32,000 nucleotides of DNA from Candidatus Latescibacterota bacterium (GTDB taxonomy: Bacteria; Latescibacterota; UBA2968; UBA8231). The notes beneath the pieces are model-generated. The model did not search any database. It saw only the letters and a list, made by a program, of their open reading frames with translations, and had not been told where the DNA came from. The stretch lies in assembly GCA_965243025.1 (NCBI GenBank), contig CBDETY010000003.1, forward strand, positions 2,851,506-2,883,505, in the 5' to 3' direction. Position 1 is the stretch's first letter; each line of letters opens with the position of its first letter. Of the stretch, positions 8,341 to 30,569 are shown one piece after another. Both the position numbers and the translations under genes were made by a program.

Positions 8341-8392
8341 CCGCGAAGTCGAGGTGATCTTCTCACTTACTTCGCGGAACTTACTTCGCGGA
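8341..8392. promoter_or_regulatory. Inverted repeat with two alternative partners: ccgcgaagt, then a 2 x 14-bp tandem repeat acttacttcgcgga
   Basis: ccgcgaagt at 8341-8349 is the reverse complement of acttcgcgg, which occurs twice (8369-8377 and 8383-8391) inside a perfect tandem duplication at 8365-8392. The site lies in the divergent, lower-GC intergenic region. Confidence 0.4.
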
Positions 8393-8837
8393 CTGGAGGT
8401 GAAGCTGATCGGACGCGGCGTAGGGTTCGCGCGAAATTTCCAGGGAAGTAAGAGGCAAGCCGTCCCGGGTGTCCCATGCTTTCCAATCACAAACCTCATC
8501 CAAATGAAAGGATGAAAAAATGAAAGATCTTCTCATGCTCTCTGGCCCCCTGGGCTACCACCGGGGAGCGTATCTTGAGCGCAATCGAGCAGGCGGGTGA
8601 GCTTCTCACGAGCCGGACCGGTTTCGTGGGGAGTTCATCATGAACGAGAGCGGCTCGTATTGCCAATGCTACTGACTTCGGGGAGTCCCGATTAGCGTCA
8701 AAGTCGACAGCATGGTCGTAACTGACCTCGGCCATTCTCCGATCATGCAGTACTTCTGGAGTGTGGCCGAGGTTCTTTTTCATTCCTTCTTGTCCCGCTG
8801 CTTCAACACAGGGTTACAGATCAAAGGTGGAGTTCAA

Positions 8838-9746: not shown

Positions 9747-10239
9747 AGTTCCGGCCTCAACTCACCGCGGGATCTCTGAATCCACACCTCGCCGGTCAGC
9801 CTCAACGGACCCGGAACCTTCGTCCGCCACCTCGACCGCGAAGGCTCTTTCTGCACCCGCAAAAGCTCGTAGCAGGCGATCGGCCGTCGCGGCCACCCGG
9901 CCACCGGGGTGCCCTGCCTGGTTGCGCGCGCACCGGCCCCTGAGCGACGGTCCGCTTCGGCGGTAACCAACCCAGCGTCGATAAACTATCTTTGGTTCTC
10001 CCCCAAGCTTGCGGTGGACTCACAGTCCGAGACGGTCCCTGGGGCGGTCGGACCCCGGAATGCCGGGGAAATCGACGCCCCTTCCATTCCCGCCGGAGTT
10101 CGAGGCGGTGTGCCACAGGGAGGATTCCTGTCATGCGAGCCCCGGAAATCCGAATTGGCATTGACTTCCCGCTGACAGCGGTTGGCTGGAGGCCAGGCTG
10201 TTGATGAGCCGCTGCATCCCTTCACCGAGCTGATTGGAA

Positions 10240-11805
10240 ATGCGGGTCCTTATCAGACCTGGAGGAAGGCTTTATCCGGCATTCATTGCCTTTCTCGTCT
10301 CCGCCTGCTCTCTCGCACCGGGCCGGAACCCTCCGGTTCTCGATTCAATTGAAAAACTCCCCGGCGAGTTTGCGGGAAGTGAAATCGACGGTTCCCACCA
10401 ACCTGGTTCCCACCAACCTCTTGAGTGGTGGAAGGCTTTCGCCGACCCGGTCCTCGACCGGATAATCGAGGAGGTGCTCGCCTCGAACTTCGACCTCGCC
10501 GGAGCGGTCGCCCGGGTCGACCAGGCCAGGGCGCGGGAACGGATAGCGAGGGCGCCGGTGTTTCCGCTGCTCCAGCCTTCGGTCGGCGTCACCGACTTCG
10601 ACACACCGGCCAATGCGGGTATCGGCGCGCAACTGGACGAGGTTGGCCTGGGCCCGGACGCCCTGAGCGCATCCGGAATCGACATCCCCGACAGGCTCGG
10701 CCTGACCACCTGGCACATCGGCACCGAATTCGCCTACGAGCTCGATTTCTGGGGCCGCAACCGCAACGACGGGCGCGCCGCCGGAGCCGAGCGGCTGGCC
10801 TCCGAGTCCGACTACCTCGCTGCCCGCATGGGTGTGCTCGCCGAAACCGTGCGCACCTACCTGGAGATCGTCAACCTGCGCAGCCAGCGGAGGCTGGCAG
10901 GCGAAATCGTGGAAATCCTGCAGCACCGCGAGTCGCTGGCCGGGTCCCGTTACGGCCGCGGGCTGACCGATCTGACCCCCCTCCGCACGGCGCGGCGGAA
11001 CCTGCGCAACGCGCAGGCCGAGCTGCCGCAGATCGAAGCTGTGCTGGCGGATGCGGAGGGGCGGCTCCGGGTGCTCCTGGGAGGTTTCCGCGCGGAACTT
11101 GCAGACCTGATGCCGGAATCCATGAAGCCTTCCCCAACCCTCGAACCGGTTCCCGCGGGGATTCCGGCCGATCTCCTTGTGCAGCGGCCCGACGTCAGCG
11201 CCGCCAGGCAGCGGGTCGAAGCGGCGCGCTACTCGGTCGGCGCCCGCCGCGCCGAGCTGCTGCCGAGGCTGTCCCTGTCCGGCTCCATCGGGCTGCAGAG
11301 CACGGAGTCGGGTGAGTTGTTCAACCCCGACCAATGGTTCCGCAATCTCAGCCTGAACCTGCTCGGCCCCGTGTTTCAGGGGGCGCGGCTGCGCGGCAAT
11401 GTCGCCCTCGCGGAGGCCCGGCTGAACGAAGCCGCCGCGGCTTACGGGCGTTCGGTGGTGACCGCGGTAAGCGAGGTCGAAGCCGCCCTTGCGGGTCTGG
11501 AAGCGAGCCGCCGGCGCCACTCGCTGCTCGCATCCCTGGCGGAAGAGGCCCGGGCCGAATCGGCCTTGCAGGAGCAGCGGTACCTCTCCGGCGTGGGGGG
11601 CTACGAGGCTTTCCTGACCGCGGCCCACACCCTCCTAGGCGCACAGTCCGCACTGACGGCCGCGGAGCGCGACCTGGGTTATGCCCGTCTTGCCCTGCAC
11701 CGCGCGCTCGGAGGTTCGTGGACCGCTGACGAAGGGGAAACCGTCCGCCAGAGCGAAGCAGCCCCGGCCGCCCCGCCCCGTTCTCTTCCGACCTCCACGG
11801 AGTAA
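10240..11805 (+). CDS. RND efflux outer-membrane factor lipoprotein (NodT/OprM family)
   Basis: Lipobox FLVSAC, then the typical WWKAFADPVLDRIIEEVLASNFDLAGAVARVDQARA and duplicated OEP-type helical repeats. The ATG at 10240 is preferred over the TTG at 10234. Confidence 0.9.
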   Translation: MRVLIRPGGRLYPAFIAFLVSACSLAPGRNPPVLDSIEKLPGEFAGSEIDGSHQPGSHQPLEWWKAFADPVLDRIIEEVLASNFDLAGAVARVDQARARERIARAPVFPLLQPSVGVTDFDTPANAGIGAQLDEVGLGPDALSASGIDIPDRLGLTTWHIGTEFAYELDFWGRNRNDGRAAGAERLASESDYLAARMGVLAETVRTYLEIVNLRSQRRLAGEIVEILQHRESLAGSRYGRGLTDLTPLRTARRNLRNAQAELPQIEAVLADAEGRLRVLLGGFRAELADLMPESMKPSPTLEPVPAGIPADLLVQRPDVSAARQRVEAARYSVGARRAELLPRLSLSGSIGLQSTESGELFNPDQWFRNLSLNLLGPVFQGARLRGNVALAEARLNEAAAAYGRSVVTAVSEVEAALAGLEASRRRHSLLASLAEEARAESALQEQRYLSGVGGYEAFLTAAHTLLGAQSALTAAERDLGYARLALHRALGGSWTADEGETVRQSEAAPAAPPRSLPTSTE

Positions 11806-11811
11806 ACCCCC

Positions 11812-13023
11812 ATGTCCCGCATACGCAGCTTGATCGTTGCCGCCGCCATAATCGCGGTCTCCGTCGGCCTGGCGGCCTTTCTCGTTTCGCTGGCGCCGGA
11901 GCCGGCCCGCACCGAGCCGCCGCCGCCGGTCCCGTTCGCGCAGACCGGGCTGGTCAAGGCCGGGACCGGTCCCATACCGGTATTCGGAGCCGGTACGGTG
12001 AGGCCGAGCGCGGAGATCGCAATCACTCCGCAAGTCGGCGGCAAGGTCGTCTGGGTGCATCCGGGATTCCGCAGCGGGGGACGGGTCGGGAAGGGCCAGG
12101 CGATCTTCCGCATCGAGGAAGCGGAATACCAGTACCGGGTGCGGGAGGCAAAGGCCAATCTCGCCGCCCGGCGGGTGGCCCTGCTTCAGGAAGAGGAACA
12201 GGCCGCCATCGCCCGCGGCCAGTACGAGCTTTACTCCGGCAGCCGGGGAGATACGGCATCGGCCGCGGCAAATCCCCTGACTCTGAGAGAACCCCAGCTC
12301 GAAGCCGCCCGCGCCGCCATGGACCGCGACGAAGCCCGCCTTGCCGAGGCGAACCTCGCCCTGTCGCGAACCCGGGTGACGGCCCCCTTCGACGGCTTCG
12401 TGCGCGAGGAGTCCGTTGACGCGGGGCAGGTCGTGAGCCCCGGCCAGCCGGTCGGGCGGCTTTTCTCCGCCGATGCCGTGGAAGTGGTCGTGTCCCTGTC
12501 CGACGCCGACGCCGCCCTGATCCCGGGGCTGTGGCAACTCGAGGCAGGCGACGGGAACCGAAAGGTGGCCGCCCGGGTGGTCGCCCGCTACGGCGGGGAG
12601 AGCTTTTCCTGGGAAGGTTTCGTCGATCGGGGCGAGGCGTCCCTCGACGAACAGACGCGCACCATCGACGTGATCGTGCGTGTGCCGGACCCGTTTTCCG
12701 CGAGCGTTCCGGCTGGCGGGGCAGGCGTCCCCGGGGGCAACCCGCCGTTGCTGGTGGGTGAGTTCGTCGAGGTGGAAATCCAGGGCCTCGAGCTCGATGG
12801 CTACTTCGAGGTGCCGCGGGCTGCCCTGCGCGCCGGCGACGAGGTCTGGATGGTCGACGAGGGCGGAGTCGTGAGCATCGTTCCGGTACGGGTGCTGCAG
12901 CGGGCGGACGACCGGGTATTCGCGACCGGCAGCCTCGGAAGCGGCGGGGCGGTGATCACCGGCGGGATCCAGTTCGCCACCCAAGGCATGCTCGTCAGGA
13001 CCGGGGCGGACCCCTCGCCATGA
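11812..13023 (+). CDS. RND efflux periplasmic adaptor (membrane fusion protein, HlyD/AcrA family)
   Basis: N-terminal TM anchor, lipoyl-like motif ITPQVGGKVVWVHPGFRSGGRVGKGQAIFRIE and a coiled-coil hairpin. It starts 6 nt after the OMF stop, and its TGA overlaps the RND start (ATGA at 13020-13023). Confidence 0.9.
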   Translation: MSRIRSLIVAAAIIAVSVGLAAFLVSLAPEPARTEPPPPVPFAQTGLVKAGTGPIPVFGAGTVRPSAEIAITPQVGGKVVWVHPGFRSGGRVGKGQAIFRIEEAEYQYRVREAKANLAARRVALLQEEEQAAIARGQYELYSGSRGDTASAAANPLTLREPQLEAARAAMDRDEARLAEANLALSRTRVTAPFDGFVREESVDAGQVVSPGQPVGRLFSADAVEVVVSLSDADAALIPGLWQLEAGDGNRKVAARVVARYGGESFSWEGFVDRGEASLDEQTRTIDVIVRVPDPFSASVPAGGAGVPGGNPPLLVGEFVEVEIQGLELDGYFEVPRAALRAGDEVWMVDEGGVVSIVPVRVLQRADDRVFATGSLGSGGAVITGGIQFATQGMLVRTGADPSP

Positions 13024-16000
13024 GTCCCAACGACGATTTCCACGGGGAACGGCCCGGACCGCTCGCCTACATGGCGGGCAACGGCGTCGCCGCCAACCTG
13101 CTGATGTGGGCAATCATCGCCGCGGGACTGGTGTCGCTCACCGCCATCGAGCGCGAAGCCTGGCCGACCCAGTCCTTCTACCATATCGAAGTCTCCATGG
13201 CCTATCCCGGCGCCACGCCGGAGGAGATCGAGGAGTCGATCGTCGTAAAGATCGAGGACCAGGTCAGCGGGCTGGATGACGTGAAGGCGGTCAAGTCCGT
13301 AGCGGCCCCGGGCATGGCCTCGGTGCGGGTCCAGATGGATTACGACACCGACATGGCCCGGGCCCTGGACGATATCGAGTCTGCGGTCAGTCGCATACCG
13401 TCCTTCCCGGCCGGCGCCGAACGTCCGCGGTTCCGGGAGATGGACAACCGCATGAGCATTATGCGGCTCATCGTCCACGGCGACGTCTCCGAGCGCTCGC
13501 TGAAGGAACTGGCGTACCAGATCGAGGACGACCTCACCACGCTCCCCTCCGTCTCCCAGGTGGAAGTCAGCGGGGTCCGGAGCTACGAGATCTCCATCGA
13601 GGTTCCCCTTCACCGCCTGCGGGCCCTCGGACTCACGCTCACCGACATCGCCGGCACCATTCGCCGCAGTTCCCTGGACCTGTCGGCCGGCAGCATCGAT
13701 ACCCGGGAATCCCAGGTCCGGGTGCGCACCCTCGGCCAGAACTACGACCAGCAGGACTTCGAGGAGATCGTCCTTCTCAGCGGCCGTGACGGCACGGTCG
13801 TGCGCCTCGGCGATATCGCCGAGGTCCGCGACGGTTTCCAGGAAGCCGACCTGATCGTGCGGCACCAGAACCATCCCGCGGTCTTCGTCGAGGTCTACCG
13901 GGCCGGCGGCGAGCACGTGATGGACGTGGCCACCACCGTCCGCGAGCACCTGGCGAACGAGGTGATCCCGGCCCTGCCGGACGGCGTCGGCATCACCATG
14001 TGGAACGACGAATCCCAGGTCTATGAGGAACGCGCCGATCTTCTCCTCAAGAACGGGATCCTGGGCATGTTGCTGGTGCTGATCGCGCTCAGCCTGTTTC
14101 TCGAAATCCGGCTCGCGCTCTGGGTCGCCGTGGGCCTCGCCGTTTCGGGTATCGGCGCCCTCGCCGTCATGATGGCATTCGACGTGGCGATCAATACCAT
14201 CAGCCTGTTCTCCTTCGTCCTCGCCATAGGGATCGTCGTCGACGACGCCATCGTCGTGGCCGAGCACATTCGATACGAACGCCAGCGGGGAACACCCGGG
14301 GTCACGGCCGCGATCCGCGGGGTACGGCGGATAAAGGTGCCGTTGACGTTCGCAGTCCTCACGTCGGTGGTGGCCTTCGTCCCGCTGCTGTTCATCCCCG
14401 GCGGCATCGGCGACGTGTGGCGGGCCCTGCCGATCATCATGATCGCCATGCTGCTGGTTTCCCTGGTCGAATCGCTGCTGGTGCTGCCCAACCACCTGTC
14501 CCACCTGCACGGCCCGGAGTGGGTGCCGGCCAATGCCTTCGACCGGTTCTTCGCGGGGCTGCAGGGGCGCGTGGACGCGCTGCTGAACAGGTTCGTGCAA
14601 GGGCCCCTGGACCGGGCCCTGAGGTTCGCCACGGCCCAGCCCGGAGTGACGATGGCGGGGGCCGTGGGAATGCTCGTGCTGAGCATCTCCCTTTTGCCCG
14701 CCGGGATCGTTCCTACCACGCTGGCCGCTGACGTGGAGGGGGATATCGCGACGGTCGTCCTGGAGATGCCCGACGGGGCGACCGCTCCGAGGACGTACGA
14801 GGTGGCGCAGGAACTGGAGGCCGCGGGCAACCGGGTCATCGAACGACTCTCGCGCGGCCGGCCCGGGGACGCGTCGCCGCTGCTGACCGGCGTGACGGTG
14901 ACCGTCGGGCTGGGCTCGAGACTCGAGGGCGGGCTCAATCCGGAGCCCACCCTCAACCCGCAAGCCAATATCGCCACCATCGAGTTCAAGCTCCTGGGCG
15001 CCCAACAGAGAGAGATCTCCACCGGAGAGGTCGTGCAGGCATGGCGGGAGGAGGTGGGTGTGCTGCCGTACGTGCGCGGCATCACCTTCAGCAGCGAGGT
15101 CTTCGACCTGGGCAACCCTGTCGAGGCGGTGCTTTCGCATCCGCATCCGGAACTTCTCGCCGAGATCGCGGACTCGGTGGTCGAAGGCCTCCGAAGTGTG
15201 GATGGCGTCTACGACATACGTTCGGACCACACCCCGGGAATCCCGGAAGTTCAGCTCGAGCTGCTTCCGGAAGCGCGCACACTCGGTCTCACGCTCGAAG
15301 AGCTGGCCGGGCAAACGCGCGCCGCCTTCTTCGGCGCCGAGGCGGTCCGGGTGCAGCGGGGCCGCGAAGAGGTCCGGGTCTACGTGCGCCTGCCCGAAGA
15401 CGAGCGGAATTCGATCACCGACGTCGAAAGCTACCTGGTCCGCACGCCGGGCGGGGCCGAGGTCCCGGTCATGAGTGTGGCCTCCCTGAACCCGGGGGTG
15501 TCGCCGCCGGCCGTTCGACGGAAGGACGGCCAGCGCGTCGTCACGGTCACTGCGGACGTCGATGCTTCCGTGATTTCAGGCGACGAAGCCAACGACATCC
15601 TGGCCAATTCCATCCTCGCGGACCTGACCGCCCTGCACCCGGACCTGACATTCAGTTTCGGCGGGGAACAGCAACAGCAGCTCGAATCCCTGGACGCGCT
15701 GTACCGCGGGTTCGCGGTCGCCCTGATCATGATCTTCGCCCTCCTCGCCATCCCCCTCCGATCCTATACCAAGCCGTTCATAATCATGGCCGTGATCCCC
15801 TTCGGATTCATCGGAGTGATCCTGGGTCACTGGATCCTCGGAGTAGCCCTGAGCGCCGTATCCTTCATGGGGATCTTCGGCCTGAGCGGGGTGGTGGTGA
15901 ACGATTCCCTGGTCATGCTCGATTTCATCGATCAGAAACTCGGGGAAGGCGTCCCGGCAAGGACTGCGGTCGTGGAGGGAGCCAAGGGGCGCTTTCGTCC

Positions 16001-16214
16001 GATCATGCTCACTTCCCTGACTACGTTCCTCGGCTTCACGCCCCTCATCCTGGAACGCGCCATCCAGGCCCAGTTCCTGATCCCCTTTGCCGCCTCGCTC
16101 GGTTGCGGCATCCTCTTCACCACGGCCATACTCATGATGGTCGTTCCCGCGCTCTACACCATCCATCTGCGTCTGATTGCTTCGGGGCGCCGTTCCGGCA
16201 CCGGCAGCGCGTAG
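13020..16214 (+). CDS. RND efflux permease (AcrB/AcrD/AcrF superfamily, 1064 aa)
   Basis: Length and architecture are typical of 12-TM RND pumps. ACR_tran-like motifs include AIGIVVDDAIVVAEHI and GLSGVVVNDSLVMLDFI. Confidence 0.92.
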   Translation: MSPNDDFHGERPGPLAYMAGNGVAANLLMWAIIAAGLVSLTAIEREAWPTQSFYHIEVSMAYPGATPEEIEESIVVKIEDQVSGLDDVKAVKSVAAPGMASVRVQMDYDTDMARALDDIESAVSRIPSFPAGAERPRFREMDNRMSIMRLIVHGDVSERSLKELAYQIEDDLTTLPSVSQVEVSGVRSYEISIEVPLHRLRALGLTLTDIAGTIRRSSLDLSAGSIDTRESQVRVRTLGQNYDQQDFEEIVLLSGRDGTVVRLGDIAEVRDGFQEADLIVRHQNHPAVFVEVYRAGGEHVMDVATTVREHLANEVIPALPDGVGITMWNDESQVYEERADLLLKNGILGMLLVLIALSLFLEIRLALWVAVGLAVSGIGALAVMMAFDVAINTISLFSFVLAIGIVVDDAIVVAEHIRYERQRGTPGVTAAIRGVRRIKVPLTFAVLTSVVAFVPLLFIPGGIGDVWRALPIIMIAMLLVSLVESLLVLPNHLSHLHGPEWVPANAFDRFFAGLQGRVDALLNRFVQGPLDRALRFATAQPGVTMAGAVGMLVLSISLLPAGIVPTTLAADVEGDIATVVLEMPDGATAPRTYEVAQELEAAGNRVIERLSRGRPGDASPLLTGVTVTVGLGSRLEGGLNPEPTLNPQANIATIEFKLLGAQQREISTGEVVQAWREEVGVLPYVRGITFSSEVFDLGNPVEAVLSHPHPELLAEIADSVVEGLRSVDGVYDIRSDHTPGIPEVQLELLPEARTLGLTLEELAGQTRAAFFGAEAVRVQRGREEVRVYVRLPEDERNSITDVESYLVRTPGGAEVPVMSVASLNPGVSPPAVRRKDGQRVVTVTADVDASVISGDEANDILANSILADLTALHPDLTFSFGGEQQQQLESLDALYRGFAVALIMIFALLAIPLRSYTKPFIIMAVIPFGFIGVILGHWILGVALSAVSFMGIFGLSGVVVNDSLVMLDFIDQKLGEGVPARTAVVEGAKGRFRPIMLTSLTTFLGFTPLILERAIQAQFLIPFAASLGCGILFTTAILMMVVPALYTIHLRLIASGRRSGTGSA

Positions 16215-16245
16215 TGCAATTCACGATGCAGGGAGGCTGAGGCTG

Positions 16246-18279
16246 ATGGCTGATACTACCGAGGGCTTGACGACCCCACCCCTGACTCTGACCCAGGAAC
16301 TCATCCTGATGCTCCTCAACGAGGAGACCGGCTACTTTCACCAGGTACCCGGCTGGCACCTGAACTGCGCCGTGGTCGGTGCCGTGCTCGCGGAGCTTTC
16401 ACTCCAATCTCGCATCGACACGGACATGGAATCCCTCTTCCTCGTGGACGCGTCGGAAACGGGCAACCCGGCCCTGGACCCCATCCTCGAGGAAATCGCG
16501 AACGCACCGAGGCAACACAACGCCCAGTACTGGATCGAACGGCTCGCTCCCCGTGCCGAGTCGATCATCGATTCGGTCCTGGACCGCCTGGTTGACCTGA
16601 AGATCCTGGAATACCACGACGGCGAATTCTGGACACTGGCTCCTGCCGTCCGGCATGGGGAACTGTCCGGCACGTCGGAGGAGGGCACTGAGGGCCAGTT
16701 CATAAGGACCCGTATCAGCAGGGTCATCTTCACCGACGAGATACCCGATCCGAGAGATGTCATCATTATCTGCCTCGTCAATACCTGCGACGTATTCCGT
16801 TTCATATTCCAGCTCGACGACGAGGCGGAGGAGCGCATCGAGTTCATCTGCAGGATGGACCTGATCGGCCGCTCCCTGGCGGCTGCGGTCTCTCAGAACC
16901 TCGCCGGCCCGGCCCTTCAACGCCCTGCCCTTGCCAGGAAGATCCCGACGGTTTCGCTCACCAAGCTGCTGCGGAACCCCCATGTTCGAGACGGCAACCT
17001 GAACGCGCTCTTCGGGAGCCTTGCGGAGGAGTACGGTCCGGTGTTCCAGATCCGCCCTCCCTTCTCGAAGCCCATGATCTTCCTGGCCGGACTCGAGGCA
17101 AACCGCTGGGTGCACAAGCGGGGGCGCATGTACCTGAGAGCCAGGGACTACTTCAGCGACTTCGAGAAGGTCTACGGCGCCTCCGGCGTCCTGCCCGCCC
17201 TGGACGGCGCCGATCACTTCCGGCTTCGCAAGTCCCTGTCGCCGGCCTATTCCGCCGGGAGGCTGGGAGGGCAGCTGGACCAGCTCTACAACCAGGGGCG
17301 CAAGTACATGGCGAGCTTGACGGTAGGGGACTCCTACCGCGCCACGTCCATGTGCCGGGAGATGGTGAACGCGCAGCTCTCGCCGCTGTTCATCGGCGTC
17401 GAAACCCAGGACCTCATGGACGACCTGATGGCCTACAAAATGCGGGCCCTCAGCGTGCACATCGCCAAGCTCCTGCCAAGGTTCACGCTGAACACCCCGG
17501 GCATGAGACGCCGGGCGAAAGCCCTGGACATACTGATGCAGCGGGTCGAGAGCGTCCATACCCCCGCCCAACGGGCGGACAGCCCGCGGGACCTGGTGGA
17601 CGATTACCTCAGCTTGCACGCGAGCGACCCCCAGTTTCTCCCGGAGTCCAACCTGCGGTTCGCCTTTTCCGCGGCCCTGATCGCCAGCGTGTACCTCGGG
17701 GATACGTTCAGCCTCGTAGTCTACGCCATGGCGTCGCAGCCCGACCTCTACGCCCGGATCCAGGCCGAAGCAGATGCCCTGTTCGCCAAGGGCGACCCCG
17801 AAAGAGAGGACTTCACCCCCGCCAACATCGACGTGACGCACCGCTTCCTGATGGAGTGCCTGCGCATGTACCCCATCGTCTCCATGTCCATTCGGAACGT
17901 GATGAATACCTGCGTGGTCGAGAATCACGAGCTGCCCATGGGGGAACGGATCCACATCGCCATGACCGCCACGCATTACATGAGCGACGTCTTTCCCGAC
18001 CCCTGCAAGTTCGACATCGACCGCTACCTGCCGCCGCGCCATGAGCATCGCAACCCCGGGTACGCCCCGTACGGGCTGGGCACGCACAAGTGTCTCGGCA
18101 CCCGCTGGATGGAGCTGCACCTGGCGGCCAACCTGCTGATGCTGGCGCACTACTTCACTATTGAGGTGTCCCCGGAGAAGTACAAGACCAAGCTCCGTTT
18201 CAGTCCCTTTCCGTCGCTGAAACCGAGCAAGAAGCTGAAGTTCCGCATCTCCGGGCAGAGGCGCGAGCTGCCCGCCTGA
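16246..18279 (+). CDS. Fusion protein: N-terminal GPP34/GOLPH3-like domain plus C-terminal cytochrome P450
   Basis: GGGAGG at 16231-16236 lies 9 nt before ATG 16246. The N-terminal ~220 aa (LTLTQELILMLLNEETGYF...AVVGAVLAELSLQSRI...WIERLAPRAESIIDSVLDRLVDLKIL) follow the GPP34 pattern. The P450 part has ExxR (ECLR), a PERF-like FDIDRYL and the heme loop YAPYGLGTHKCLG. Confidence 0.85.
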   Translation: MADTTEGLTTPPLTLTQELILMLLNEETGYFHQVPGWHLNCAVVGAVLAELSLQSRIDTDMESLFLVDASETGNPALDPILEEIANAPRQHNAQYWIERLAPRAESIIDSVLDRLVDLKILEYHDGEFWTLAPAVRHGELSGTSEEGTEGQFIRTRISRVIFTDEIPDPRDVIIICLVNTCDVFRFIFQLDDEAEERIEFICRMDLIGRSLAAAVSQNLAGPALQRPALARKIPTVSLTKLLRNPHVRDGNLNALFGSLAEEYGPVFQIRPPFSKPMIFLAGLEANRWVHKRGRMYLRARDYFSDFEKVYGASGVLPALDGADHFRLRKSLSPAYSAGRLGGQLDQLYNQGRKYMASLTVGDSYRATSMCREMVNAQLSPLFIGVETQDLMDDLMAYKMRALSVHIAKLLPRFTLNTPGMRRRAKALDILMQRVESVHTPAQRADSPRDLVDDYLSLHASDPQFLPESNLRFAFSAALIASVYLGDTFSLVVYAMASQPDLYARIQAEADALFAKGDPEREDFTPANIDVTHRFLMECLRMYPIVSMSIRNVMNTCVVENHELPMGERIHIAMTATHYMSDVFPDPCKFDIDRYLPPRHEHRNPGYAPYGLGTHKCLGTRWMELHLAANLLMLAHYFTIEVSPEKYKTKLRFSPFPSLKPSKKLKFRISGQRRELPA

Positions 18280-18290
18280 GGCGCTGCGAA

Positions 18291-19322
18291 GTGGGGCTGG
18301 GAAAGCTTTCGAGAGAGCTGAGAGACGCGTACCGGGGATCGCCCGTGGCGCGGCGGGTCCGGCACTTCGAGGGCTGGCTCGACCGGGCGGCGGCGGAGCC
18401 AGGTGGCGCGGGGTACGACCACACTGAAACAGCGAAAGACTATTACGACCTCTGCAGCGGGTTCATGGTGTGGGGCTGGGGCGAATCCCTGCACTTCGCC
18501 CCCCTCACGCCTCATGAGAGTCTGGAGGAGTCCAAGGTCCGGCACCAGCGGGCGATGATCTCCGAGTTGGAGCTGCAACAGGGTATGACGGTGGTCGACG
18601 TCGGTTGTGGGGTCGGCGGCCCCATGCGCCGCGTCGTCCGTGAGGCCGGGGTCAGGGTCGTGGGCATCAACATCAATGAGATCCAGTTGGAAATGGCGAA
18701 GAGGTTGAACGCCGAGGCGGGGCTCGATCACATGGTCGATTTCGAGACCTGCAGCTTCATGGACATGAGCGCCATCGAGGACGACACCTTCGACCGGGGG
18801 TATGCCATAGAGTCAACCTGCCATGCGCCGGACAAGCAACGCGCCTTCGAGGAGGTTTTCCGCGTGCTGAAACCCGGTGCCCTGTTCTGGGGGCAGGAAA
18901 TGTGTCTGACGGACAAGTTCGATCCGCAGGACGACCGGCACCGGGCCATCGAGCAGGATCTCATGCGCGGCATTGCGCTGAAGGACATCGCCACCTTCGG
19001 GGAAGTGGATCACGCGCTCCAAGCCGCGGGATTCCAAGTCATGGAAGGGATGGACCGGGACGTCCAGGAGGGACCCTCCACACCTTGGTACAAGCCCATG
19101 GAGAGTCGCCACGGGGCGTTGGGCAACGCCTTGCGCAGGCTTCCGTGGGGCCGCAAGGCCTTCCTCGCAGGATCGAAGCTGGCGGAAGTGCTGCGGCTCT
19201 TTCCGAAAGGCTCCGCCGAAGTGGTCCGATTCCTCGATCGAACCGCGCAGGCTTATGTCGCGGGGGGCAAGGCGGGAATCTTCACGCCGCTGTACTGTTT
19301 TCTGGCTCGCAAGCCTCTTTAA
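18291..19322 (+). CDS. Sterol C-24 methyltransferase (ERG6/SMT1-like, SAM-dependent)
   Basis: GTG start 11 nt after the P450 stop, with GAGG 9 nt upstream. All SMT signature blocks are present: YYDLCSGFMVWGWGESLHFAP, VDVGCGVGGP, YAIESTCHAP, TPWYKPMES and the C-terminal LFPKGSAEV...VAGGKAGIFTPLYCFLARKP. From memory, yeast ERG6 has YYNVVTDFYEYGWGSSFHF, LDVGCGVGGP, YAIEATCHAP, IPWYYPL and GLAPEGSKEV...VAGGKSKLFTPMMLFVARKP. Confidence 0.9.
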   Translation: MGLGKLSRELRDAYRGSPVARRVRHFEGWLDRAAAEPGGAGYDHTETAKDYYDLCSGFMVWGWGESLHFAPLTPHESLEESKVRHQRAMISELELQQGMTVVDVGCGVGGPMRRVVREAGVRVVGININEIQLEMAKRLNAEAGLDHMVDFETCSFMDMSAIEDDTFDRGYAIESTCHAPDKQRAFEEVFRVLKPGALFWGQEMCLTDKFDPQDDRHRAIEQDLMRGIALKDIATFGEVDHALQAAGFQVMEGMDRDVQEGPSTPWYKPMESRHGALGNALRRLPWGRKAFLAGSKLAEVLRLFPKGSAEVVRFLDRTAQAYVAGGKAGIFTPLYCFLARKPL

Positions 19323-19433
19323 GCCTGGATGACAGGCCGGTCCTCGCCTTGGAATGGAGGGGCATCGGCGATCGTTCAGCGGGGCCGCCCACCAGGACGG
19401 AAACGGCCAGGTACGGCAGGTGTCGGGCGAGAG

Positions 19434-20519
19434 TTACCCGACCTCGCCGGACTCTGCCGTTTCACCCCCGGCGCCGTCCGGCTCAAGTTGCGGATAGAAC
19501 TGCCGGCAGTACCGGCGGTACTGCCCTATGGGGCCGTCGGCCGCACACAGCCTGGGGACAGGCCGGTACTGCTTCCGCTCCCAGATCACCACGTCCTGCA
19601 GGACATCCTGTTGCTGTTGTGACAGCAGAATGCGGTTCATCAGCCTGCTGCGAAGCTTCATCGGAAGAAACCCCAGGCCCGAGATGAACCGCCGCGGCCT
19701 GCGGATGTCCCGCATCTGGCTGACCAGTGCGAGATCGATGAGAGTGCCGTCAACGGGCGTTGCCAGCACCCACAATCGAGTATTCATACCGATGGTTTTC
19801 TCGTGGATTTCGACGAAGGAGTACCCCAGTCCATGGACGTGGGTGACGGCCGAGGTTTCGTGCACGAGGTCCTTTACCCCCAGGATCCTGCGGACCCGTT
19901 TGAAATCGAAGCAGCTCTTCAGGTAGGGGCCGTCGACCGTGACCGTACCGACCGGATTCACGTTGTCGTAGCCGTGCACGTAGCGCAGGTGTCCCAGGTC
20001 CACGGAGTTCTCGGCCGTCTCCTGGGGATGGCCGCGGAACCGGAGGGTCCTGAATCCCGGCTTCCCCCACTCCGGGCCGCCGGGGGGGTCGTCCGGAAGG
20101 TGCCAGTGCGGAGGACGGCCGCCGCTGCCGAACCAGGCGAAGACCATGCCGAGGATCTCCCTGGTCTCGTAAACCTTCAGTTTCGCGGCTTTGGGAGCCG
20201 GGGCGTTCGGAGTGGCGACGCACTGGCCGGTCGTGTCGAACTCAAACCCGTGAAACGGACAGACGAGGCGGCCGTCGCACACCTGGCCGCCGACCTCCGG
20301 CCCCAGGTACGAACCCAGGTGGGGACATACCGCGTCGGCCACGCAGACTCGGCCTGCCTCGTCGCACCAGGCGACGATTTCCTCCCCCAGCCAGGTTTTC
20401 TCGATCAGTTTCTCACGCAGAATGGACTCGCGGGTTTCTACGAAATACCACCCCTCGGGGAACGCCGGCAACTCGTCGATTCGATTCAAGGCAGGTCGTT
20501 GGGAGTTGCTGACTGGCAT
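19434..20519 (-). CDS. Rieske [2Fe-2S] non-heme iron oxygenase (Neverland / KshA / SdmA-like, sterol-type)
   Basis: Rieske motif CPHLGSYLG...CPFHGFEF and mononuclear iron motif ENSVDLGHLRYVH. I placed the start at ATG 20519 (MPVSN..., GGA-rich stretch ~9 nt upstream); the longest ORF starts at a TTG at 20567. Confidence 0.8.
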   Translation of the reverse strand: MPVSNSQRPALNRIDELPAFPEGWYFVETRESILREKLIEKTWLGEEIVAWCDEAGRVCVADAVCPHLGSYLGPEVGGQVCDGRLVCPFHGFEFDTTGQCVATPNAPAPKAAKLKVYETREILGMVFAWFGSGGRPPHWHLPDDPPGGPEWGKPGFRTLRFRGHPQETAENSVDLGHLRYVHGYDNVNPVGTVTVDGPYLKSCFDFKRVRRILGVKDLVHETSAVTHVHGLGYSFVEIHEKTIGMNTRLWVLATPVDGTLIDLALVSQMRDIRRPRRFISGLGFLPMKLRSRLMNRILLSQQQQDVLQDVVIWERKQYRPVPRLCAADGPIGQYRRYCRQFYPQLEPDGAGGETAESGEVG

Positions 20520-20613
20520 GTCCGGAGATCCTGTCATCAGCACCGAGATAATATCAGAGTTATGCAAGTTCCCTGGTATGAAATGCCCAGGGGGGAACCC
20601 GAGGGTGATTCAG

Positions 20614-21918: not shown

Positions 21919-24582
21919 CTAGTAAACCACCGCGACGGTGCGGATGACATCGCTCTGGTCGAGGCCGGCGCCCTTGTCGTCGGCCTCGACGTGGAAGCGG
22001 AGAACATACATCCCGGGAGGGACACATCTGCCGGCCTCGTCCTCACCGTCCCATTTCAGCTCGTATTCACCTGCGCCCACCTCCCCGCGTTTTCGCAGGG
22101 TGCGCACGGGCCGACCGCTCAGGTCGTGGACGGACACCTCCACCGCACGGCTTGCCCCCACGAGAACGACCGCGAAACGGAGGACAAGCTCGTCGTTGAC
22201 GCCGTCGCTGTTCGGGGTGAAGACCGGAGGTAGAATATCGAAGGCCGTCATGAGCTGTCGGCGTTGCTGAACCCCTACCACTACCAGGCTGTTGCTGTCG
22301 ACGCCGCGGGCGGCATCGCCCCCGTCCACCTGCTGCCAGACCGTCTCTCCGTCGCCGGCGAAGCGGGCAAACGCCTGCACCTGCCCGCCGACGGAAAACA
22401 GACGGCCCGTGAAGTCGAGGCGAAGCACCTCGATGCCCTCTTCCGGTTCGATGAGGGGAAAGGCGACCAGCAGACTGTCCTCGGAGGTGTCGAGCTGTAT
22501 GGCGCCCTCAATGGCGAAGGGGGAGGACAGACCTCCTTCCGCCAGCAGGTCCTGCTCCGCTCCGGCGAGTATGCGGCTGAAGACATCCAGGCTCATGCCG
22601 TCAGGCGCGGTGAGCAGCAGTCCGTCGAAGCCCGGGTTCCCGCGGCCGAAGTCCGGCCGCACGTACAGGGAAAAGGGCCATTCCACCGCCAGCGACTCGA
22701 CCCTCCCCGGGGTCACCTCCCCCAGAAAACGCTGCGCCAGCGGGTCGGAGTACTTCAGTCGCACGCTGCGCAGGGCGGCGGCGGCCTCGGGGCTGTCCGA
22801 GATCAGGGTGGCGCGCATCTGCACGAAGTTGCGCGGCGACGGCGAGGTGATGCGGCTGCCGGACACCCGGTACGGCTCGCTCCAGGCACTGGCGTCGCTG
22901 CCCATGACCTCCTCGATGACGATGTCCCCTCTGAGAGTATTGGGGGGGAGTTTGACCTTCGGGTTGGGCTCCTTGAGCTTGTCGTACCTCTCCGCGGTCA
23001 CCTCCTCGCCGAGGCCGTTGTAATAATGGCTTACCTCCGACTTCGTGCTGCTGGTGCGGGTCTGCAGGAAGACGCCGGTCCCCGGAGGGGTGTCGGCGTC
23101 CCACTCGATGGAGGTCAGCGTGCGCGTCCCCCCCGGGTCGATGAGGGGTGACTCGAGGCTCACCCGCGGCTGAAACCCATCGCCGTACATCTGCAGCTCG
23201 GTGATCGGAAAATTGACAATGTTCACTCCTCTTTCATACACGATCCTGAAGTATCGAGCCTGCAGGGGCGCCCCGAAGCTGTGGCGCTCGGCTTCCATCT
23301 GGGTTCTGTGCACCTCGTAAAACCGGCCCCCTTCCCCCCGGCGGCCTCGAAGCTTGGCCACCGGGACCTGCTCGATGCGCTTGCCCGTGACCCAGTTGGG
23401 GCTGCCGTCGACCTGCCGGGAACCGTCGGAGAAATCGAGCTGGAAATTCCCGAACGTGTAGTTGTGACCGGCACCCCGCAGGTTCATGAGGATCCTCAGG
23501 CTGCTGATCCAGAAGGACGACCCGAGATCCACGACCATTTCAGGCACGAGCGCCTTCTGGACCTGGAGGGGAAAAGCGGTCAGCACGTTGCCGTCGAACA
23601 TGTCGCCAGGAGCAGCTTCGCTCGGGGGCTGGGTCGCAACGCCGCCCCCCCGTTCGAGGAGTCGGCGCGCCAGGTCTTCCCCCTCCTCCCAGACCTCGAG
23701 CTCTGCCAGACGAGGCCGTTCGCGGCGATAGTGGCGGATCGGTCCCCGCCGCTCCTCGGGCACGAGGAGGTAGTTTTCTTCCGGCACGGCAAGCAGCCGT
23801 CCATCGCTCAGGCGTTTGGTGAATTCCACCGCACCCCTGACTTCCTCAGGAAGCTCCCGGTACGTTTCGGCGTCGACCTCCACACCGCGGCCAAGGCGCG
23901 ATCCGCGCACGATCACCTGGACGTAGCGGGCGACCATGGTGCGGGCATTGTCCGGCACCTCGGAAAAGTCGATCTCGAACAGGCGCCGGGTCGTGTTCGG
24001 CGTGAACAAGCGCAGGACGGGCAGGTATTCGAGGGATTCCCCGGCGAGGGTGGAGACCGGTTTCTGCCCGTCCGAGGTCAGCACGTCGAAAAGCAGAAAG
24101 GGATCGCCCAGATCCTCGTCGACAAAGCGCAGCACGATCCGGTTGAGGACGACGACGCGGCCCAGATCGAGGGTGAACCACCACCGGGACGGGATGTCGG
24201 CTCCCTCGGGAAGGGGGCCAGGCTCCCAGAAAGTTGCCGCATCCCCGTCCAGGACTCCGGGTACCCCTTCACGATTCGAGCCCGCGGCGACGGCGTCGAG
24301 AAGGTCGATCTCCTCCGGCGCCTTGCCGGCCAGGTGTTCCGGGGGCCGCTCGCGGAGGAAATCGACAATGCGGTCCCTGGCGTTGGTATCCATGGTCCAG
24401 CGCCTCGGTTGCACGCCGGAAGGAAGAAGCTCCACCGTGCCCACGGGAAACAGCCAGTGCTCCCAGTGCTCCGGAGTGTCGGCCACGATCTGACGCCCGG
24501 TGCGGTCCAGCCGGTACGCGCCGGCCTGGCCCCAAAGGGAGGTGCTCGTGAACACGAGCACGGCAAGGGCGACGGCGAACAC
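21919..24582 (-). CDS. Large secreted protein (~887 aa) with discoidin-like domain(s) and a C-terminal FTPNxDGVND / FlgD-Ig-like domain
   Basis: Proposed GTG start at 24582, 16 nt after the upstream stop, gives a hydrophobic N-terminus FAVALAVLVFTSTSLWGQA. LDGDAATFWEP resembles a discoidin (F5/8 type C) domain. The C-terminus FTPNSDGVNDELVLRF...VHDLSGRPVRTL...GEYELKWDGEDEAGRCVPPGMYVLRF resembles FlgD-Ig / T9SS-type sorting domains. Confidence 0.7.
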   Translation of the reverse strand: MFAVALAVLVFTSTSLWGQAGAYRLDRTGRQIVADTPEHWEHWLFPVGTVELLPSGVQPRRWTMDTNARDRIVDFLRERPPEHLAGKAPEEIDLLDAVAAGSNREGVPGVLDGDAATFWEPGPLPEGADIPSRWWFTLDLGRVVVLNRIVLRFVDEDLGDPFLLFDVLTSDGQKPVSTLAGESLEYLPVLRLFTPNTTRRLFEIDFSEVPDNARTMVARYVQVIVRGSRLGRGVEVDAETYRELPEEVRGAVEFTKRLSDGRLLAVPEENYLLVPEERRGPIRHYRRERPRLAELEVWEEGEDLARRLLERGGGVATQPPSEAAPGDMFDGNVLTAFPLQVQKALVPEMVVDLGSSFWISSLRILMNLRGAGHNYTFGNFQLDFSDGSRQVDGSPNWVTGKRIEQVPVAKLRGRRGEGGRFYEVHRTQMEAERHSFGAPLQARYFRIVYERGVNIVNFPITELQMYGDGFQPRVSLESPLIDPGGTRTLTSIEWDADTPPGTGVFLQTRTSSTKSEVSHYYNGLGEEVTAERYDKLKEPNPKVKLPPNTLRGDIVIEEVMGSDASAWSEPYRVSGSRITSPSPRNFVQMRATLISDSPEAAAALRSVRLKYSDPLAQRFLGEVTPGRVESLAVEWPFSLYVRPDFGRGNPGFDGLLLTAPDGMSLDVFSRILAGAEQDLLAEGGLSSPFAIEGAIQLDTSEDSLLVAFPLIEPEEGIEVLRLDFTGRLFSVGGQVQAFARFAGDGETVWQQVDGGDAARGVDSNSLVVVGVQQRRQLMTAFDILPPVFTPNSDGVNDELVLRFAVVLVGASRAVEVSVHDLSGRPVRTLRKRGEVGAGEYELKWDGEDEAGRCVPPGMYVLRFHVEADDKGAGLDQSDVIRTVAVVY

Positions 24583-24598
24583 GGGAACCGCACCCCTT

Positions 24599-26599
24599 TC
24601 AATAGGCCAGGGAGACGACGCGGCTTGCCGCGAAGGTGGCGTCGTCGGTTTCGACCTCGAGTCGCAGCACGTAGATGCCGGGGGGCAGGAGCTTGCTGTT
24701 GCCGTCCATGCCGTCCCAGGAGACGGTATGGGGTCCGCTTGCACGTTGCGCCAACGGCAATTCGGCCCGGCGCCTCCCGGTCAGATCGAACACCTTCAGG
24801 CTTACGGGCACAGCCGCCGACAGGTTCACGAGATCGAAGCGGATGTGGAGAAGGTCGTTGACGCGGTCGCCGTTGGGGGTGAACAGCCCGGTGGAAACCT
24901 CGATCTCCTCGAGCACCCGCCCCCCCACCTCGGCCAGTTCGACGGTGAGGGAGTTGCTCTCGGCCAGAAAGTCGGCATCCCCCGGCTCCAGCAACTGAGG
25001 AACCTCCCACGGTCGGGTACTGTTGGAGACCCTGCCCTCGAACACCGTGCCGTAGTCGTAGATGCGGGCCTTGAAGACCACGGTCACGACCTCCCCGGTC
25101 CGGCGGGCGTCAATTCGCGGCAGGTCGACCTCGAACCCGGTCGAGTCGACCGTTGCCCGCCATTGCGAGAACTCCAGAGAAACTCCGTCGATGGCGACCG
25201 ATTCGACGCTGTCGACAGGCGTCGGTGTGGTGATCCGGATGCGGTCGAAGCCCAGGTCCCCCGTCCTGATCTCCGGCCGCAGGAAGAGGGTGAAAGGGGT
25301 CGACTCTCTGGCCTCGGCCTGTCGCGGTTCAATTTCGGCCACGGCGCGGGTCGCAGCCTGTGGTCGGGTCACCGGAAACTCGAGGTAGTCGAGGCGGCCG
25401 CCCGCATGGAAGTCCCCTCTGAACTGCACGTACCGGCGGGGGCGGCTGGTGCGGAATTCCGCCGCCTGGTCGACGAATCCCAGGGGCGCGCTCCAGTTCG
25501 ACCAGTTGTCGAGATCCGGGGCGGTGCCCCCCTGCGCACCCGGCTCCAATCCGAGATAGGCGGTCCGGTCCAGGGGATCACCCTCGGGGTTGTAGCGGCT
25601 CCGTTCGGCCCCCCGAAAGGTTTTGCGGAAGTAAATGTTGGGATCGGCGGTATCGCCGCTGCGCAACCGCAGATCCACCCTCGCTCCCGGGTGGAGCACT
25701 CCCGACCAGGCGATAGGGCCCAGAATCGCGAACTCCTCCAGATCGATCACGTTGGAGGTATAGTTCGAGCTCACGACGAACCCATCGGCGTAGACCTCGA
25801 ACTCCGCGATCCACCAGTTCCCGATCTCTGCGATGAAGATGATGTTCTGCACCGGTTCGCCCGAAAAATCGAACTCGAGCACCCCGCTCGTGTTGTCCAG
25901 GACCTCCCTGACGACATCGAAGTCCATGCTGAGGAACCCAACCCCATCCGCCTGCTTGTACCAGATTTCTCTCTCGCGAAATCCGATCCTCAACGGATCG
26001 CCGTCGTTGATTCCGAGGGTGTAGGTGGGAATGTACCTGTCCTCTTCGGTTCCCGGCGGGGGGTACAGGCGAACTGTGCGCAGGGGAAACACCCCCGGCA
26101 GGGTCAGCCAGATGTATTTACACCTTCCCTGGTAGGTATCATAGCCTTGAACGCGATCGGCATCGCCGCAATAGGGTGCGGCCTGGCCGCCGATATAGGT
26201 GCCGCCACTCTGGTAGAAGGTCTGAAAATCCCCATCCCACATGACCTCCATGCCGGGTTCGAACTGGAACCCGTTGTACGTCTCCCACGATTTGATGGTG
26301 CCGCCCCCGTCCATGACGGTGGGCACGAGGTTCATATCGCCGGCCACGAATTGGGGACGGATGGAATCGGGACGGATTTCGACGAGACGGGAGCTGCCGA
26401 AAGGCCGCGCGTTGAGCTGTTCCCACGAGAGCTGGACGAACCGCAAGGAGTCGGCCGGGGCGCCCAGGGCGTCGGGGTCCGGAGGGGGAATGCTCTCGCC
26501 GCCGATCCGGTAGATCGTCAGGCCCGAACTCTGGGACAGCCCCATCAGGCCCGCGGCCCAACAGCACAGAATCACCAGCCGAGTCGACAGAGATCTCAT
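24599..26599 (-). CDS. Large secreted protein (666 aa), paralogous in architecture to the downstream gene
   Basis: Signal peptide MRSLSTRLVILCCWAAGLMGLSQS, discoidin-like WIAEFEVYADGF, a shared WS.P...R.(Y/F)VQ.R motif, and the C-terminus FTPNGDRVNDLLHIRF...VFDLTGRRRAEL...HTVSWDGMDGNSKLLPPGIYVLRL. Confidence 0.7.
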   Translation of the reverse strand: MRSLSTRLVILCCWAAGLMGLSQSSGLTIYRIGGESIPPPDPDALGAPADSLRFVQLSWEQLNARPFGSSRLVEIRPDSIRPQFVAGDMNLVPTVMDGGGTIKSWETYNGFQFEPGMEVMWDGDFQTFYQSGGTYIGGQAAPYCGDADRVQGYDTYQGRCKYIWLTLPGVFPLRTVRLYPPPGTEEDRYIPTYTLGINDGDPLRIGFREREIWYKQADGVGFLSMDFDVVREVLDNTSGVLEFDFSGEPVQNIIFIAEIGNWWIAEFEVYADGFVVSSNYTSNVIDLEEFAILGPIAWSGVLHPGARVDLRLRSGDTADPNIYFRKTFRGAERSRYNPEGDPLDRTAYLGLEPGAQGGTAPDLDNWSNWSAPLGFVDQAAEFRTSRPRRYVQFRGDFHAGGRLDYLEFPVTRPQAATRAVAEIEPRQAEARESTPFTLFLRPEIRTGDLGFDRIRITTPTPVDSVESVAIDGVSLEFSQWRATVDSTGFEVDLPRIDARRTGEVVTVVFKARIYDYGTVFEGRVSNSTRPWEVPQLLEPGDADFLAESNSLTVELAEVGGRVLEEIEVSTGLFTPNGDRVNDLLHIRFDLVNLSAAVPVSLKVFDLTGRRRAELPLAQRASGPHTVSWDGMDGNSKLLPPGIYVLRLEVETDDATFAASRVVSLAY

Positions 26600-30555: not shown

Positions 30556-30569
30556 TATGGACCTTCCTG

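Follow-up and report, generated by a model that had tools for sequence, protein, structure and literature searches.

The fusion gene and its operon

The 32,000-nucleotide (nt) stretch of DNA analysed here over its full length (hereafter the window) comes from a Candidatus Latescibacterota bacterium (contig CBDETY010000003.1) and holds, as the fourth gene of a tightly packed operon, a gene (16246..18279, +) whose 677-amino-acid (aa) product joins an N-terminal GPP34/GOLPH3-fold domain to a C-terminal cytochrome P450. The gene opens with an ATG at 16246 and closes with a stop codon at 18277-18279, and a ribosome-binding site, AGGGAGG (16230..16236, +), can be read 9 nt 5' of that ATG. A TTG start at 16177 was rejected because it overlaps the upstream transporter gene and because the lengths of the homologues (673-686 aa) give it no support. 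The G+C fraction at third codon positions (GC3) was 0.85 in the fusion frame against 0.62 in the antisense open reading frame (ORF), with 0.80 in the N-terminal part and 0.89 in the P450 part.

The operon is ordered OEP-MFP-RND-GPP34/P450-SMT. Its first gene, and the first of the island described below, encodes an OEP/TolC-like outer-membrane efflux protein (10234..11805, +; Pfam OEP, E 8.7e-43), followed by a HlyD-type membrane-fusion protein (MFP) or adaptor (11812..13023, +; Pfam HlyD_3 and HlyD_D23) whose stop codon overlaps the start codon of an AcrB-type resistance-nodulation-division (RND) transporter (13020..16214, +; Pfam ACR_tran, E 1.3e-157). The transporter gene ends 31 nt upstream of the fusion gene, and 11 nt after the fusion stop begins a homologue of sterol C-24 methyltransferase (SMT; 18291..19322, +) with a Sterol_MT_C domain (E 4.3e-16) and methyltransferase domains. 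The predicted SMT carries the Region I motif, (Y/F/W)G(W/Y)GxS(F/L)HF, as WGWGESLHF at aa 61 and the S-adenosylmethionine motif VVDVGCGVGG at aa 101. A reading made earlier from the sequence alone (the sequence-only reading) had placed the P450 between an RND pump and an SMT, and that arrangement stands. Convergent with the operon, and last in the shared block, is a KshA-like Rieske non-haem iron oxygenase (19434..20567, -; Pfam Rieske and KshA_C) that has the CxH...CxxH cluster motif and the Fe motif, and whose best match in the PDB was KshA (4qdc, a steroid 9alpha-hydroxylase; E 5.5e-22). Its identification as SdmA was rejected at 31 bits against an NCBIfam cut-off of 600. No tRNA genes were found in the window, no integrase was seen, and a promoter and terminator scan of the island gave results at chance level.

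The protein itself divides into the GPP34/GOLPH3-fold domain (aa 15-216; 16288..16893, +), a linker (aa 217-246; 16894..16983, +) and the cytochrome P450 domain (aa 247-677; 16984..18276, +). The linker is basic (net charge +5, counted over aa 215-250) and is the least conserved part, with a median identity to the window protein of 62% in 95 orthologues. An AlphaFold2 (AF2) model of the whole protein reached a mean predicted local distance difference test score (pLDDT) of 90.3 and a predicted template-modelling score (pTM) of 0.86, with low confidence confined to aa 1-8, the 139-151 loop and a few linker residues at about aa 221-230. Beyond the fold and the confidence of the model, our structural statements come from sequence alignment.

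An old fusion, conserved in both domains

Database surveys revealed that the fusion is widespread. Of 5.8 billion proteins searched, more than 120 clusters reached ≥74% identity; their members are 664-686 aa long, and all carry both PF05719 and PF00067. A scan of one genome per species returned 171 relatives, many on closed chromosomes of 2-6 Mb, the best 80 of which were full-length at 68-94% identity. An identical, uninterrupted ORF layout was further seen on 20 metagenome contigs, many from sponge metagenomes, including A. aerophoba (Ga0209021 series) and P. ficiformis / S. foetidus (LXNJ / LXNI series). Because the same ORF recurs in all of these clusters, genome relatives and contigs, a chimeric join or a frameshift, for which the sequence-only reading had singled out positions of about 16850-16950, is excluded. 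An artefact in which two adjacent genes were joined through a lost stop codon or a chimeric contig thus has a negligible probability: the continuous ORF is present in many independent assemblies, closed chromosomes among them, GC3 is high on both sides of the join, the ratio of nonsynonymous to synonymous substitution rates (dN/dS) of the linker is below 0.4, and AF2 is confident across the junction apart from the linker dip.

The two domains are conserved to the same degree: in 95 orthologues the median identity to the window protein is 75% over the N-domain and 73% over the P450. Comparison of the window with five close relatives gave dN/dS of 0.11-0.25 in both. Both domains are under purifying selection. 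When the P450 domain alone was searched against 1.84 billion representative proteins, nearly all of the closest full-length relatives, down to about 29% identity, were 636-711 aa long; all eight long relatives that were checked for GPP34 were positive (one has two GPP34 domains), and unfused P450s appeared among the matches only at about 39% identity and below. As the relatives of the P450 are mostly of fusion size and carry GPP34, the fusion is an old one that has diversified into many subfamilies.

An acidic GOLPH3-fold domain lacking the phosphoinositide pocket

The sequence-only reading had recognised a GPP34/GOLPH3 pattern at the N-terminus, and profile searches bore this out: Pfam GPP34 (PF05719) matched aa 15-216 at E 9.4e-31 and 107.9 bits against a cut-off of 29.1, covering profile positions 1-199 of 201, and hhalign, run with an alignment of 40 family sequences against human GOLPH3, gave a probability of 97.3%. 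A separate model of aa 1-228 (pLDDT 88.9) was compared with the PDB by Foldseek, which returned eight matches at E≤1e-3, all of them GOLPH3 or Vps74 at query TM-scores (TMq) of 0.62-0.71, the next match lying at E 0.24. By sequence, the N-domain alone gave only marginal Vps74 matches in the PDB (E 0.008). Taken together with the predicted structure, these results make membership of the GOLPH3 fold secure.

We next mapped the residues by which GOLPH3 contacts phosphatidylinositol 4-phosphate (PI4P), using a human GOLPH3 sequence whose numbering reproduces the published W81, R90, R171 and R174. Position W81 corresponds to V34 of the window protein (V or L in 95 orthologues), R90 to V44 (V, I, A, M or T), R171 to E105 (E or D) and R174 to I108 (I or V). 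In the profile alignment, none of the 95 orthologues has a basic residue at the equivalents of R90, R171 or R174. The domain is also strongly acidic, since aa 1-225 hold 38 acidic and 15 basic residues (net -23, where the core of GOLPH3 stands at +1), and among 40 family members the N-domain is net negative in 38 and positive in none. Whether the basic pocket is retained, as the sequence-only reading had wondered, is therefore answered in the negative. For this orthologous group at least, pocket loss, as read from the alignments, and acidity argue against both the basic-pocket idea and the published PI4P-effector model.

The same earlier reading had cast the domain as a membrane- or lipid-targeting module, a proposal that survives in part. 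Its lipid context, more exactly a sterol context, is much strengthened by the SMT, Rieske and RND genes conserved across phyla, whereas a phosphoinositide-type membrane anchor is unlikely because the pocket residues are absent and the net charge is -23. Targeting to a membrane or lipid by another route, for example by docking to a membrane protein, is plausible. In GOLPH3, a conserved, flat, acidic patch captures the short, basic tails that membrane enzymes expose to the cytoplasm (Welch et al. 2021, PMC8421267), and by analogy a strongly acidic GOLPH3-fold domain is compatible with retention of a tail-capture function. No N-terminal signal peptide or transmembrane segment was visible in the protein, whose highest 19-residue hydropathy (1.89) lies within the fold; the first helix of that fold begins at aa 15 in the AF2 model. 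Six residues of the domain (W37, R56, D78, W96, R156 and R197) are invariant or nearly so in the 95 orthologues.

A P450 with an atypical I-helix

The chain runs unbroken into a complete P450, as the sequence-only reading had it (Pfam p450, PF00067, E 4.1e-34, 118.6 bits against a cut-off of 22.8), with a catalytic domain at about aa 247-670 by alignment to solved P450s. Three motifs do not vary among 40 diverse fusions: ExxR (E537/R540), the PERF-like DIDRY (D590/R593) and the Cys loop YGLGTHKCLG (C616), which corresponds to the haem-ligand consensus FxxGxxxCxG. Cys616, the haem thiolate ligand (codon 18091..18093, +), is invariant in the 95 orthologues as well. The product is a conserved haem-thiolate enzyme of the cytoplasm, of which the GOLPH3-fold domain is an integral part. 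The I-helix departs from the canon: in place of AGxDT it has A480-S-V-Y-L-G-D486 (17683..17703, +), nearly invariant in the 95 orthologues, so that the acid-alcohol pair of the pattern A/G-G-x-D/E-T is missing from the window's A-S-V-Y-L-G-D-T, and position 487 is Ala in 62 of the 95. Most other GPP34-P450 subfamilies keep AGLDT. Other functional P450s also lack the I-helix Thr, and its loss is not disqualifying.

The domain is E-class-like, and its nearest solved sequences (phmmer against the PDB) were Methylococcus CYP51, CYP120, other CYP51s and eukaryote-type P450s, at E 3e-18 and about 20% identity. Identification as a CYP51 was rejected, because identity is only about 20%, where more than about 30% to known CYP51s would be expected, the I-helix VYLG aligns to GHHT, and neither the B'-C nor the AG-Q/H-HTS signature is present; the sequence-only reading had likewise found no CYP51-type signature blocks. 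No NCBIfam model came near its cut-off for the P450, which leaves it without a functional name, and Foldseek with the whole model returned the P450 fold (TMt about 0.8) among generic P450s (BM3, CYP184A1, CYP51) that are uninformative on substrate. Neither the regiochemistry nor the choice between hydroxylation and desaturation can be read from the P450 sequence.

An apparently transferable gene block across phyla

To describe the neighbourhood, ORFs from 100 related loci and the window (101 sequences) were clustered, and representatives were searched against Pfam and the PDB. These loci had been chosen for their resemblance to the window protein and cover one orthologous group plus six spot-checked paralogues, and phylum assignments are the labels of the metagenome-assembled genome (MAG) records, many of them closed chromosomes. 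An SMT with a Sterol_MT_C domain was found in 78/101 sequences and a Rieske oxygenase with KshA as its closest solved relative (E 5.5e-22) in 74/101. A flavin adenine dinucleotide (FAD) amine-oxidase-like protein followed in 44 loci, a transporter of the MMPL / Patched / sterol-sensing-domain (SSD) type in 42, an AcrB-type RND in 36, ERG4/ERG24 sterol reductases in 14 (E 1.7e-72) and LppX-type lipid-carrier lipoproteins in 10; the ORF filter (GC3 highest of the three codon positions) keeps these neighbour counts low, tblastn having given somewhat more. Of the 67 genome loci whose 10-kb flanks were complete, an RND-superfamily transporter was present in 64 and an SMT or Rieske gene in 64, with both of the latter in 44. 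The transporter was of the AcrB type in Latescibacterota, Gemmatimonadota, Rhodothermales and Acidobacteriota, and of the MMPL/SSD type in Chloroflexota, Binatia and one gammaproteobacterium.

This block core, namely the fusion, an SMT, a Rieske enzyme and some RND-superfamily transporter, recurs in at least nine phyla, in MAGs that come largely from samples of sponges and other marine invertebrates. In the window the shared block spans about 10 kb (~10290-20479) and is 80-87% identical in DNA to its closest relatives (L001, L005, L007 and L025), the flanks being unrelated. Block proteins are 60-94% identical across phyla (the fusion 68-94%), the closest relatives of the fusion, at 94%, lie in MAGs labelled Candidatus Latescibacterota, and the RND protein is 82-94% identical and syntenic in Latescibacterota and Gemmatimonadota loci. 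Since similarity ends at 10290 and 20479 and identity across phyla is high, the block behaves as a transferable island, in which an SMT, a Rieske oxygenase of the steroid type and a lipid transporter of the RND superfamily are inherited together with the fusion gene.

The FAD amine-oxidase-like protein, recurrent in the island (for example L005 14261-15625, -; L102 17061-18040), is absent from the window. Its best PDB matches were LkcE and then the 'putative aminooxidase' 2b9w, a Propionibacterium acnes fatty-acid double-bond isomerase, and the island protein is a candidate side-chain isomerase or desaturase.

Paralogous GPP34-P450 subfamilies, at 34-39% identity, occupy related settings. In two loci (L106 8001-12143 and L107 6272-10414), two GPP34-P450 genes stand in tandem in a cluster with an SMT, an SdmB-like gene (303 bits), an SdmA-like Rieske gene (413 bits), an ERG4/24 reductase and a further P450, and two paralogous subfamilies flank or abut OEP-MFP-AcrB operons, one of which is flanked by the fusions of L108 (1-575 and 8001-9998). 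One representative (P0196, 872 aa) carries two GPP34 domains ahead of its P450. At L101 (8001-12080) and L104 (1931-11248), Acyl_transf_3 directly follows the GPP34-P450 and Sulfotransfer_1/3 lies nearby, with a DDE transposase also nearby in L104; this cassette hints at a different lipid conjugation, possibly of sulfated or acylated sterols.

Published work on symbiont GPP34 and bacterial sterols

The architecture, which the sequence-only reading did not recognise as described, had in fact been published. Ferreira et al. (2025, Microbiome 13:4, PMC11706023) catalogued a long form, GPP34_L, in which 656 of 663 proteins combine GPP34 with a P450, and the window protein is a member of that family. 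Their reports of GPP34_L are confined to sponge symbionts, where it occurs in most of the 16 surveyed phyla that carry GPP34 and in 92.6% of the Latescibacterota and Gemmatimonadota genomes from sponges; the authors further describe rare fusions of GPP34 to a Rieske domain or to an ABC ATPase, unfused GPP34_S genes that often adjoin a separate P450, expression of GPP34 genes in situ and their absence from free-living relatives. They hypothesise a secreted PI4P-binding effector that blocks phagosome maturation, and make no mention of sterols or methyltransferases (PMC11706023). Public records name GPP34-P450 proteins simply "cytochrome P450". Among our related loci were RHO, APA, COS and SB bins, named like the sponge datasets of Ferreira et al. 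Two records have names that hint at other sources, namely isolate 'Plut_88899' (L013), suggestive of a coral (Porites lutea) MAG, and 'TARA_SAMEA6039926' (L108), suggestive of a Tara metagenome; judged by these record names, the published exclusivity of GPP34_L to sponge symbionts may be too strong.

On the sterol side, Brown et al. (2023, Nat Commun 14:1859, PMC10070321) demonstrated side-chain alkylation of sterols in vitro by SMTs of sponge symbionts, with methylation of desmosterol, and described de novo sterol clusters with an oxidosqualene cyclase (OSC), ERG11, ERG24, SdmA and SdmB; that paper makes no mention of P450. Presence of the fusion on their SMT contigs was rejected, as contig names differ and the clusters lie on other contigs of the same metagenomes. 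In Methylococcus, BstA is an RND/MMPL sterol transporter encoded beside sterol genes (Zhai et al. 2024, eLife, PMC10942540). Full-text literature searches found no paper that links GPP34_L to sterols, and the mobile sterol-gene context of GPP34-P450 across phyla appears to be unreported.

A sterol-tailoring enzyme docked at the membrane?

We propose that the protein may be a sterol-tailoring cytoplasmic P450 that is docked through its GPP34 domain at the membrane or at a transporter. The sterol-tailoring context of the island we consider likely, and the docking role of the GPP34 domain a possibility short of an even chance, from which we assign the combined statement a probability of roughly 0.45. 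The island would tailor sterols, whether host-derived or made by the cell, and probably host sterols in most carriers, because sterol synthesis in all carrier phyla is implausible and no OSC lies nearby. In such a pathway, alkylation of the sterol side chain would fall to the SMT, hydroxylation or desaturation of the side chain or the nucleus to the P450 and the Rieske enzyme, and transport of the lipid across the envelope to the RND pump. Soluble on its own, the P450 would be kept at the cytoplasmic face of the inner membrane by the GPP34 domain, most likely through a membrane protein such as the co-encoded transporter, which the domain would contact by an acidic tail-binding surface as in GOLPH3 and not by the PI4P pocket. 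Docking of this kind would be a bacterial counterpart of the N-terminal anchor of eukaryotic sterol P450s.

A sterol substrate is what several homologies appear to support: the SMT, the KshA-like Rieske enzyme, ERG4/ERG24, the MMPL/Patched/SSD transporters, LppX, the paralogue cluster with SdmA- and SdmB-like genes, and the BstA precedent. For docking, the analogous GPP34-Rieske and GPP34-ABC ATPase fusions, which join the domain to other proteins that work at membranes, lend support.

Several points weigh against this proposal. The window holds no OSC, squalene monooxygenase or redox partners, so that the substrate is read from the neighbouring genes only, and two paralogous subfamilies have sulfotransferase and acyltransferase genes as neighbours in place of sterol genes. 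The usual task of tripartite AcrB pumps is toxin export, so that detoxification would fit equally well. The type of oxidation is uncertain because the I-helix is atypical and has no conserved Thr. Direct docking to lipid is doubtful, since anionic bacterial membranes would repel an acidic domain, and the protein partner proposed in its place is a guess.

Other explanations fit part of these observations. The published proposal, in which symbiont GPP34 is secreted, binds phagosomal PI4P in the sponge cell and blocks maturation while the P450 is accessory, draws on the strong enrichment of the family in sponge symbionts, its absence from free-living relatives, its expression in situ and the GOLPH3 fold of the N-domain. 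GOLPH3 and Vps74 are indeed PI4P effectors in eukaryotes. In the present family, however, the four contact positions are not conserved, the three Arg positions are never basic and the net charge of the domain is -23, where that of the GOLPH3 core is +1; furthermore, an RND pump and a sterol methyltransferase are encoded in the same operon, a haem P450 depends on electron donors in the cytoplasm, and no Sec/Tat-type signal or transmembrane segment is visible, though dedicated secretion without a signal could occur. For these reasons we regard a secreted PI4P effector as very improbable. An intramolecular role for GPP34 in ligand handling, regulation or oligomerisation (sterol hand-over, active-site gating or Vps74-like tetramerisation) is unlikely but deserves more weight: the pTM of 0.86 suggests a fixed packing of the domains and not a loose string of beads, conservation of the N-domain equals that of the catalytic one, and W37, R56, D78, W96, R156 and R197 could form a site. 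Two of these six, D78 and W96, are probably structural, because they align with residues conserved in GOLPH3. GOLPH3 and Vps74 are not known to have a lipid-binding cavity besides the PI4P pocket, and that pocket is lost here. The frequent placement of GPP34_S genes beside a free-standing P450 points to a partner protein more than to an intramolecular lid.

That the island serves detoxification and efflux, with a toxic host metabolite (a sponge terpenoid, a steroidal saponin or another lipid) modified and then pumped out, we rate as quite unlikely. OEP-MFP-AcrB is the classic efflux architecture, the island has spread horizontally among unrelated symbionts in one chemical environment, and other GPP34-P450 subfamilies lie beside sulfotransferases and acyltransferases, typical conjugation enzymes; set against this, the methyltransferase has a sterol-specific C-terminal domain and the Region I motif, related loci carry ERG4/24 reductases, transporters with sterol-sensing domains and SdmA/SdmB-like genes, and related sponge-symbiont SMTs methylate desmosterol in vitro (PMC10070321). 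If the toxin were itself a sterol, this explanation would overlap with the sterol-tailoring one.

Were the fusion a sterol-tailoring enzyme in a mobile island that most sponge symbionts carry, it would offer a testable gene set for the odd sterols of sponge holobionts, a metabolic explanation for the enrichment of GPP34 in symbionts and a suggestion of a pre-eukaryotic function for the GOLPH3 fold. The finding links two literatures, neither of which cites the subject of the other: that on GPP34 as a symbiosis factor (Ferreira et al. 2025) and that on bacterial methylation of sterol side chains in sponges (Brown et al. 2023), the latter with a bearing on the disputed 24-isopropylcholestane "oldest animal" biomarker. 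Through the island context and the evidence against PI4P binding, an unexplained "symbiosis factor" becomes a testable enzyme hypothesis. A more far-reaching and rather doubtful proposal is that the fusions are the sterol oxidisers of a horizontally exchanged remodelling and transport island in sponge symbionts of at least nine phyla, and that the GOLPH3 fold is an adaptor of ancient prokaryotic origin by which lipid enzymes are tethered to the machinery of the membrane. If true, that adaptor role could be the bacterial forerunner of the retention of Golgi enzymes by GOLPH3, much of the unusual side-chain chemistry of sponge sterols, that of the alkylated sterols taken as the oldest animal biomarkers included, could be the work of bacteria that make or edit it on host sterols, and the published phagosome-evasion account of GPP34 enrichment in symbionts would need replacing.

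Other features of the window

Just upstream of the island boundary lies a 344-aa ORF (8712-9746, +) with no Pfam or NCBIfam match, and positions 8000-10200 form the lowest-GC stretch of the window (0.58-0.61, against 0.65-0.73 elsewhere). Near the start of the window, a 690-aa ORF (624-2696, -) combines a subtilase (Peptidase_S8) with both DUF1611 halves (Rossmann-like and P-loop), an unusual-looking fusion. Beyond the island, two large proteins (21919-24744, -, and 24599-26599, -) carry FlgD_ig/CHU_C tails for sorting by type IX secretion, and one of the two also matches an F5/8 type C domain weakly, under the curated cut-off. Such tails are consistent with a host of the FCB group (Latescibacterota). 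The two ORFs overlap by about 145 nt, so that one of them probably starts further downstream. A gene pair for hydantoinase/oxoprolinase A and B (26697-30693, -; GC3 0.92-0.94) looks like ordinary metabolism unrelated to the island.

Comparison with known systems

The closest known system is GPP34_L itself, whose architecture the window protein shares (N-terminal GPP34, C-terminal P450, about 670 aa) in the same phyla. Where it departs from the account of Ferreira et al. is in the absence of the PI4P residues and in the placement of the gene within a conserved island with SMT, Rieske and RND genes. With eukaryotic GOLPH3 and Vps74 (PDB 3kn1, 9qpq, 2zih) it has in common the fold and the Pfam family, and an acidic surface for the tails of membrane proteins (PMC8421267) may be common to both. 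The window protein is, however, bacterial and fused to an enzyme, with no Golgi or COPI context, it has lost a 10-residue segment ahead of the R171 helix, and it differs in the charge of the domain (net -23 against +1) and in the replacement of W81/R90/R171/R174 by V/V/E/I.

Among P450s, the CYP51s are the closest solved sequences, aligning over their full length at E 3e-18, and the CYP51-ferredoxin fusion of Methylococcus capsulatus (PDB 7jj1, 6mi0, 6mcw) offers a bacterial sterol P450 that likewise has an extra fused domain. There the fused domain is a C-terminal redox partner, whereas here it is an N-terminal GOLPH3 fold.

At the level of gene clusters, those of Brown et al. also come from sponge-metagenome bacteria, from the same source metagenomes, and have SMT homologues near Rieske oxygenases and ERG24-type reductases, with SdmA/SdmB at 44-47% identity to Methylococcus. 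The window island differs from them in having no OSC, ERG11 or SdmB, a Rieske enzyme that is KshA-like, and an efflux pump. The BstABC system of Methylococcus capsulatus shares with the island an RND/MMPL inner-membrane transporter beside sterol-modifying genes; the window has an AcrB-type tripartite pump in place of it, with no BstB or BstC homologues seen, and it is the MMPL/SSD transporters of the Chloroflexota and Binatia islands that belong to the same Pfam family as BstA.

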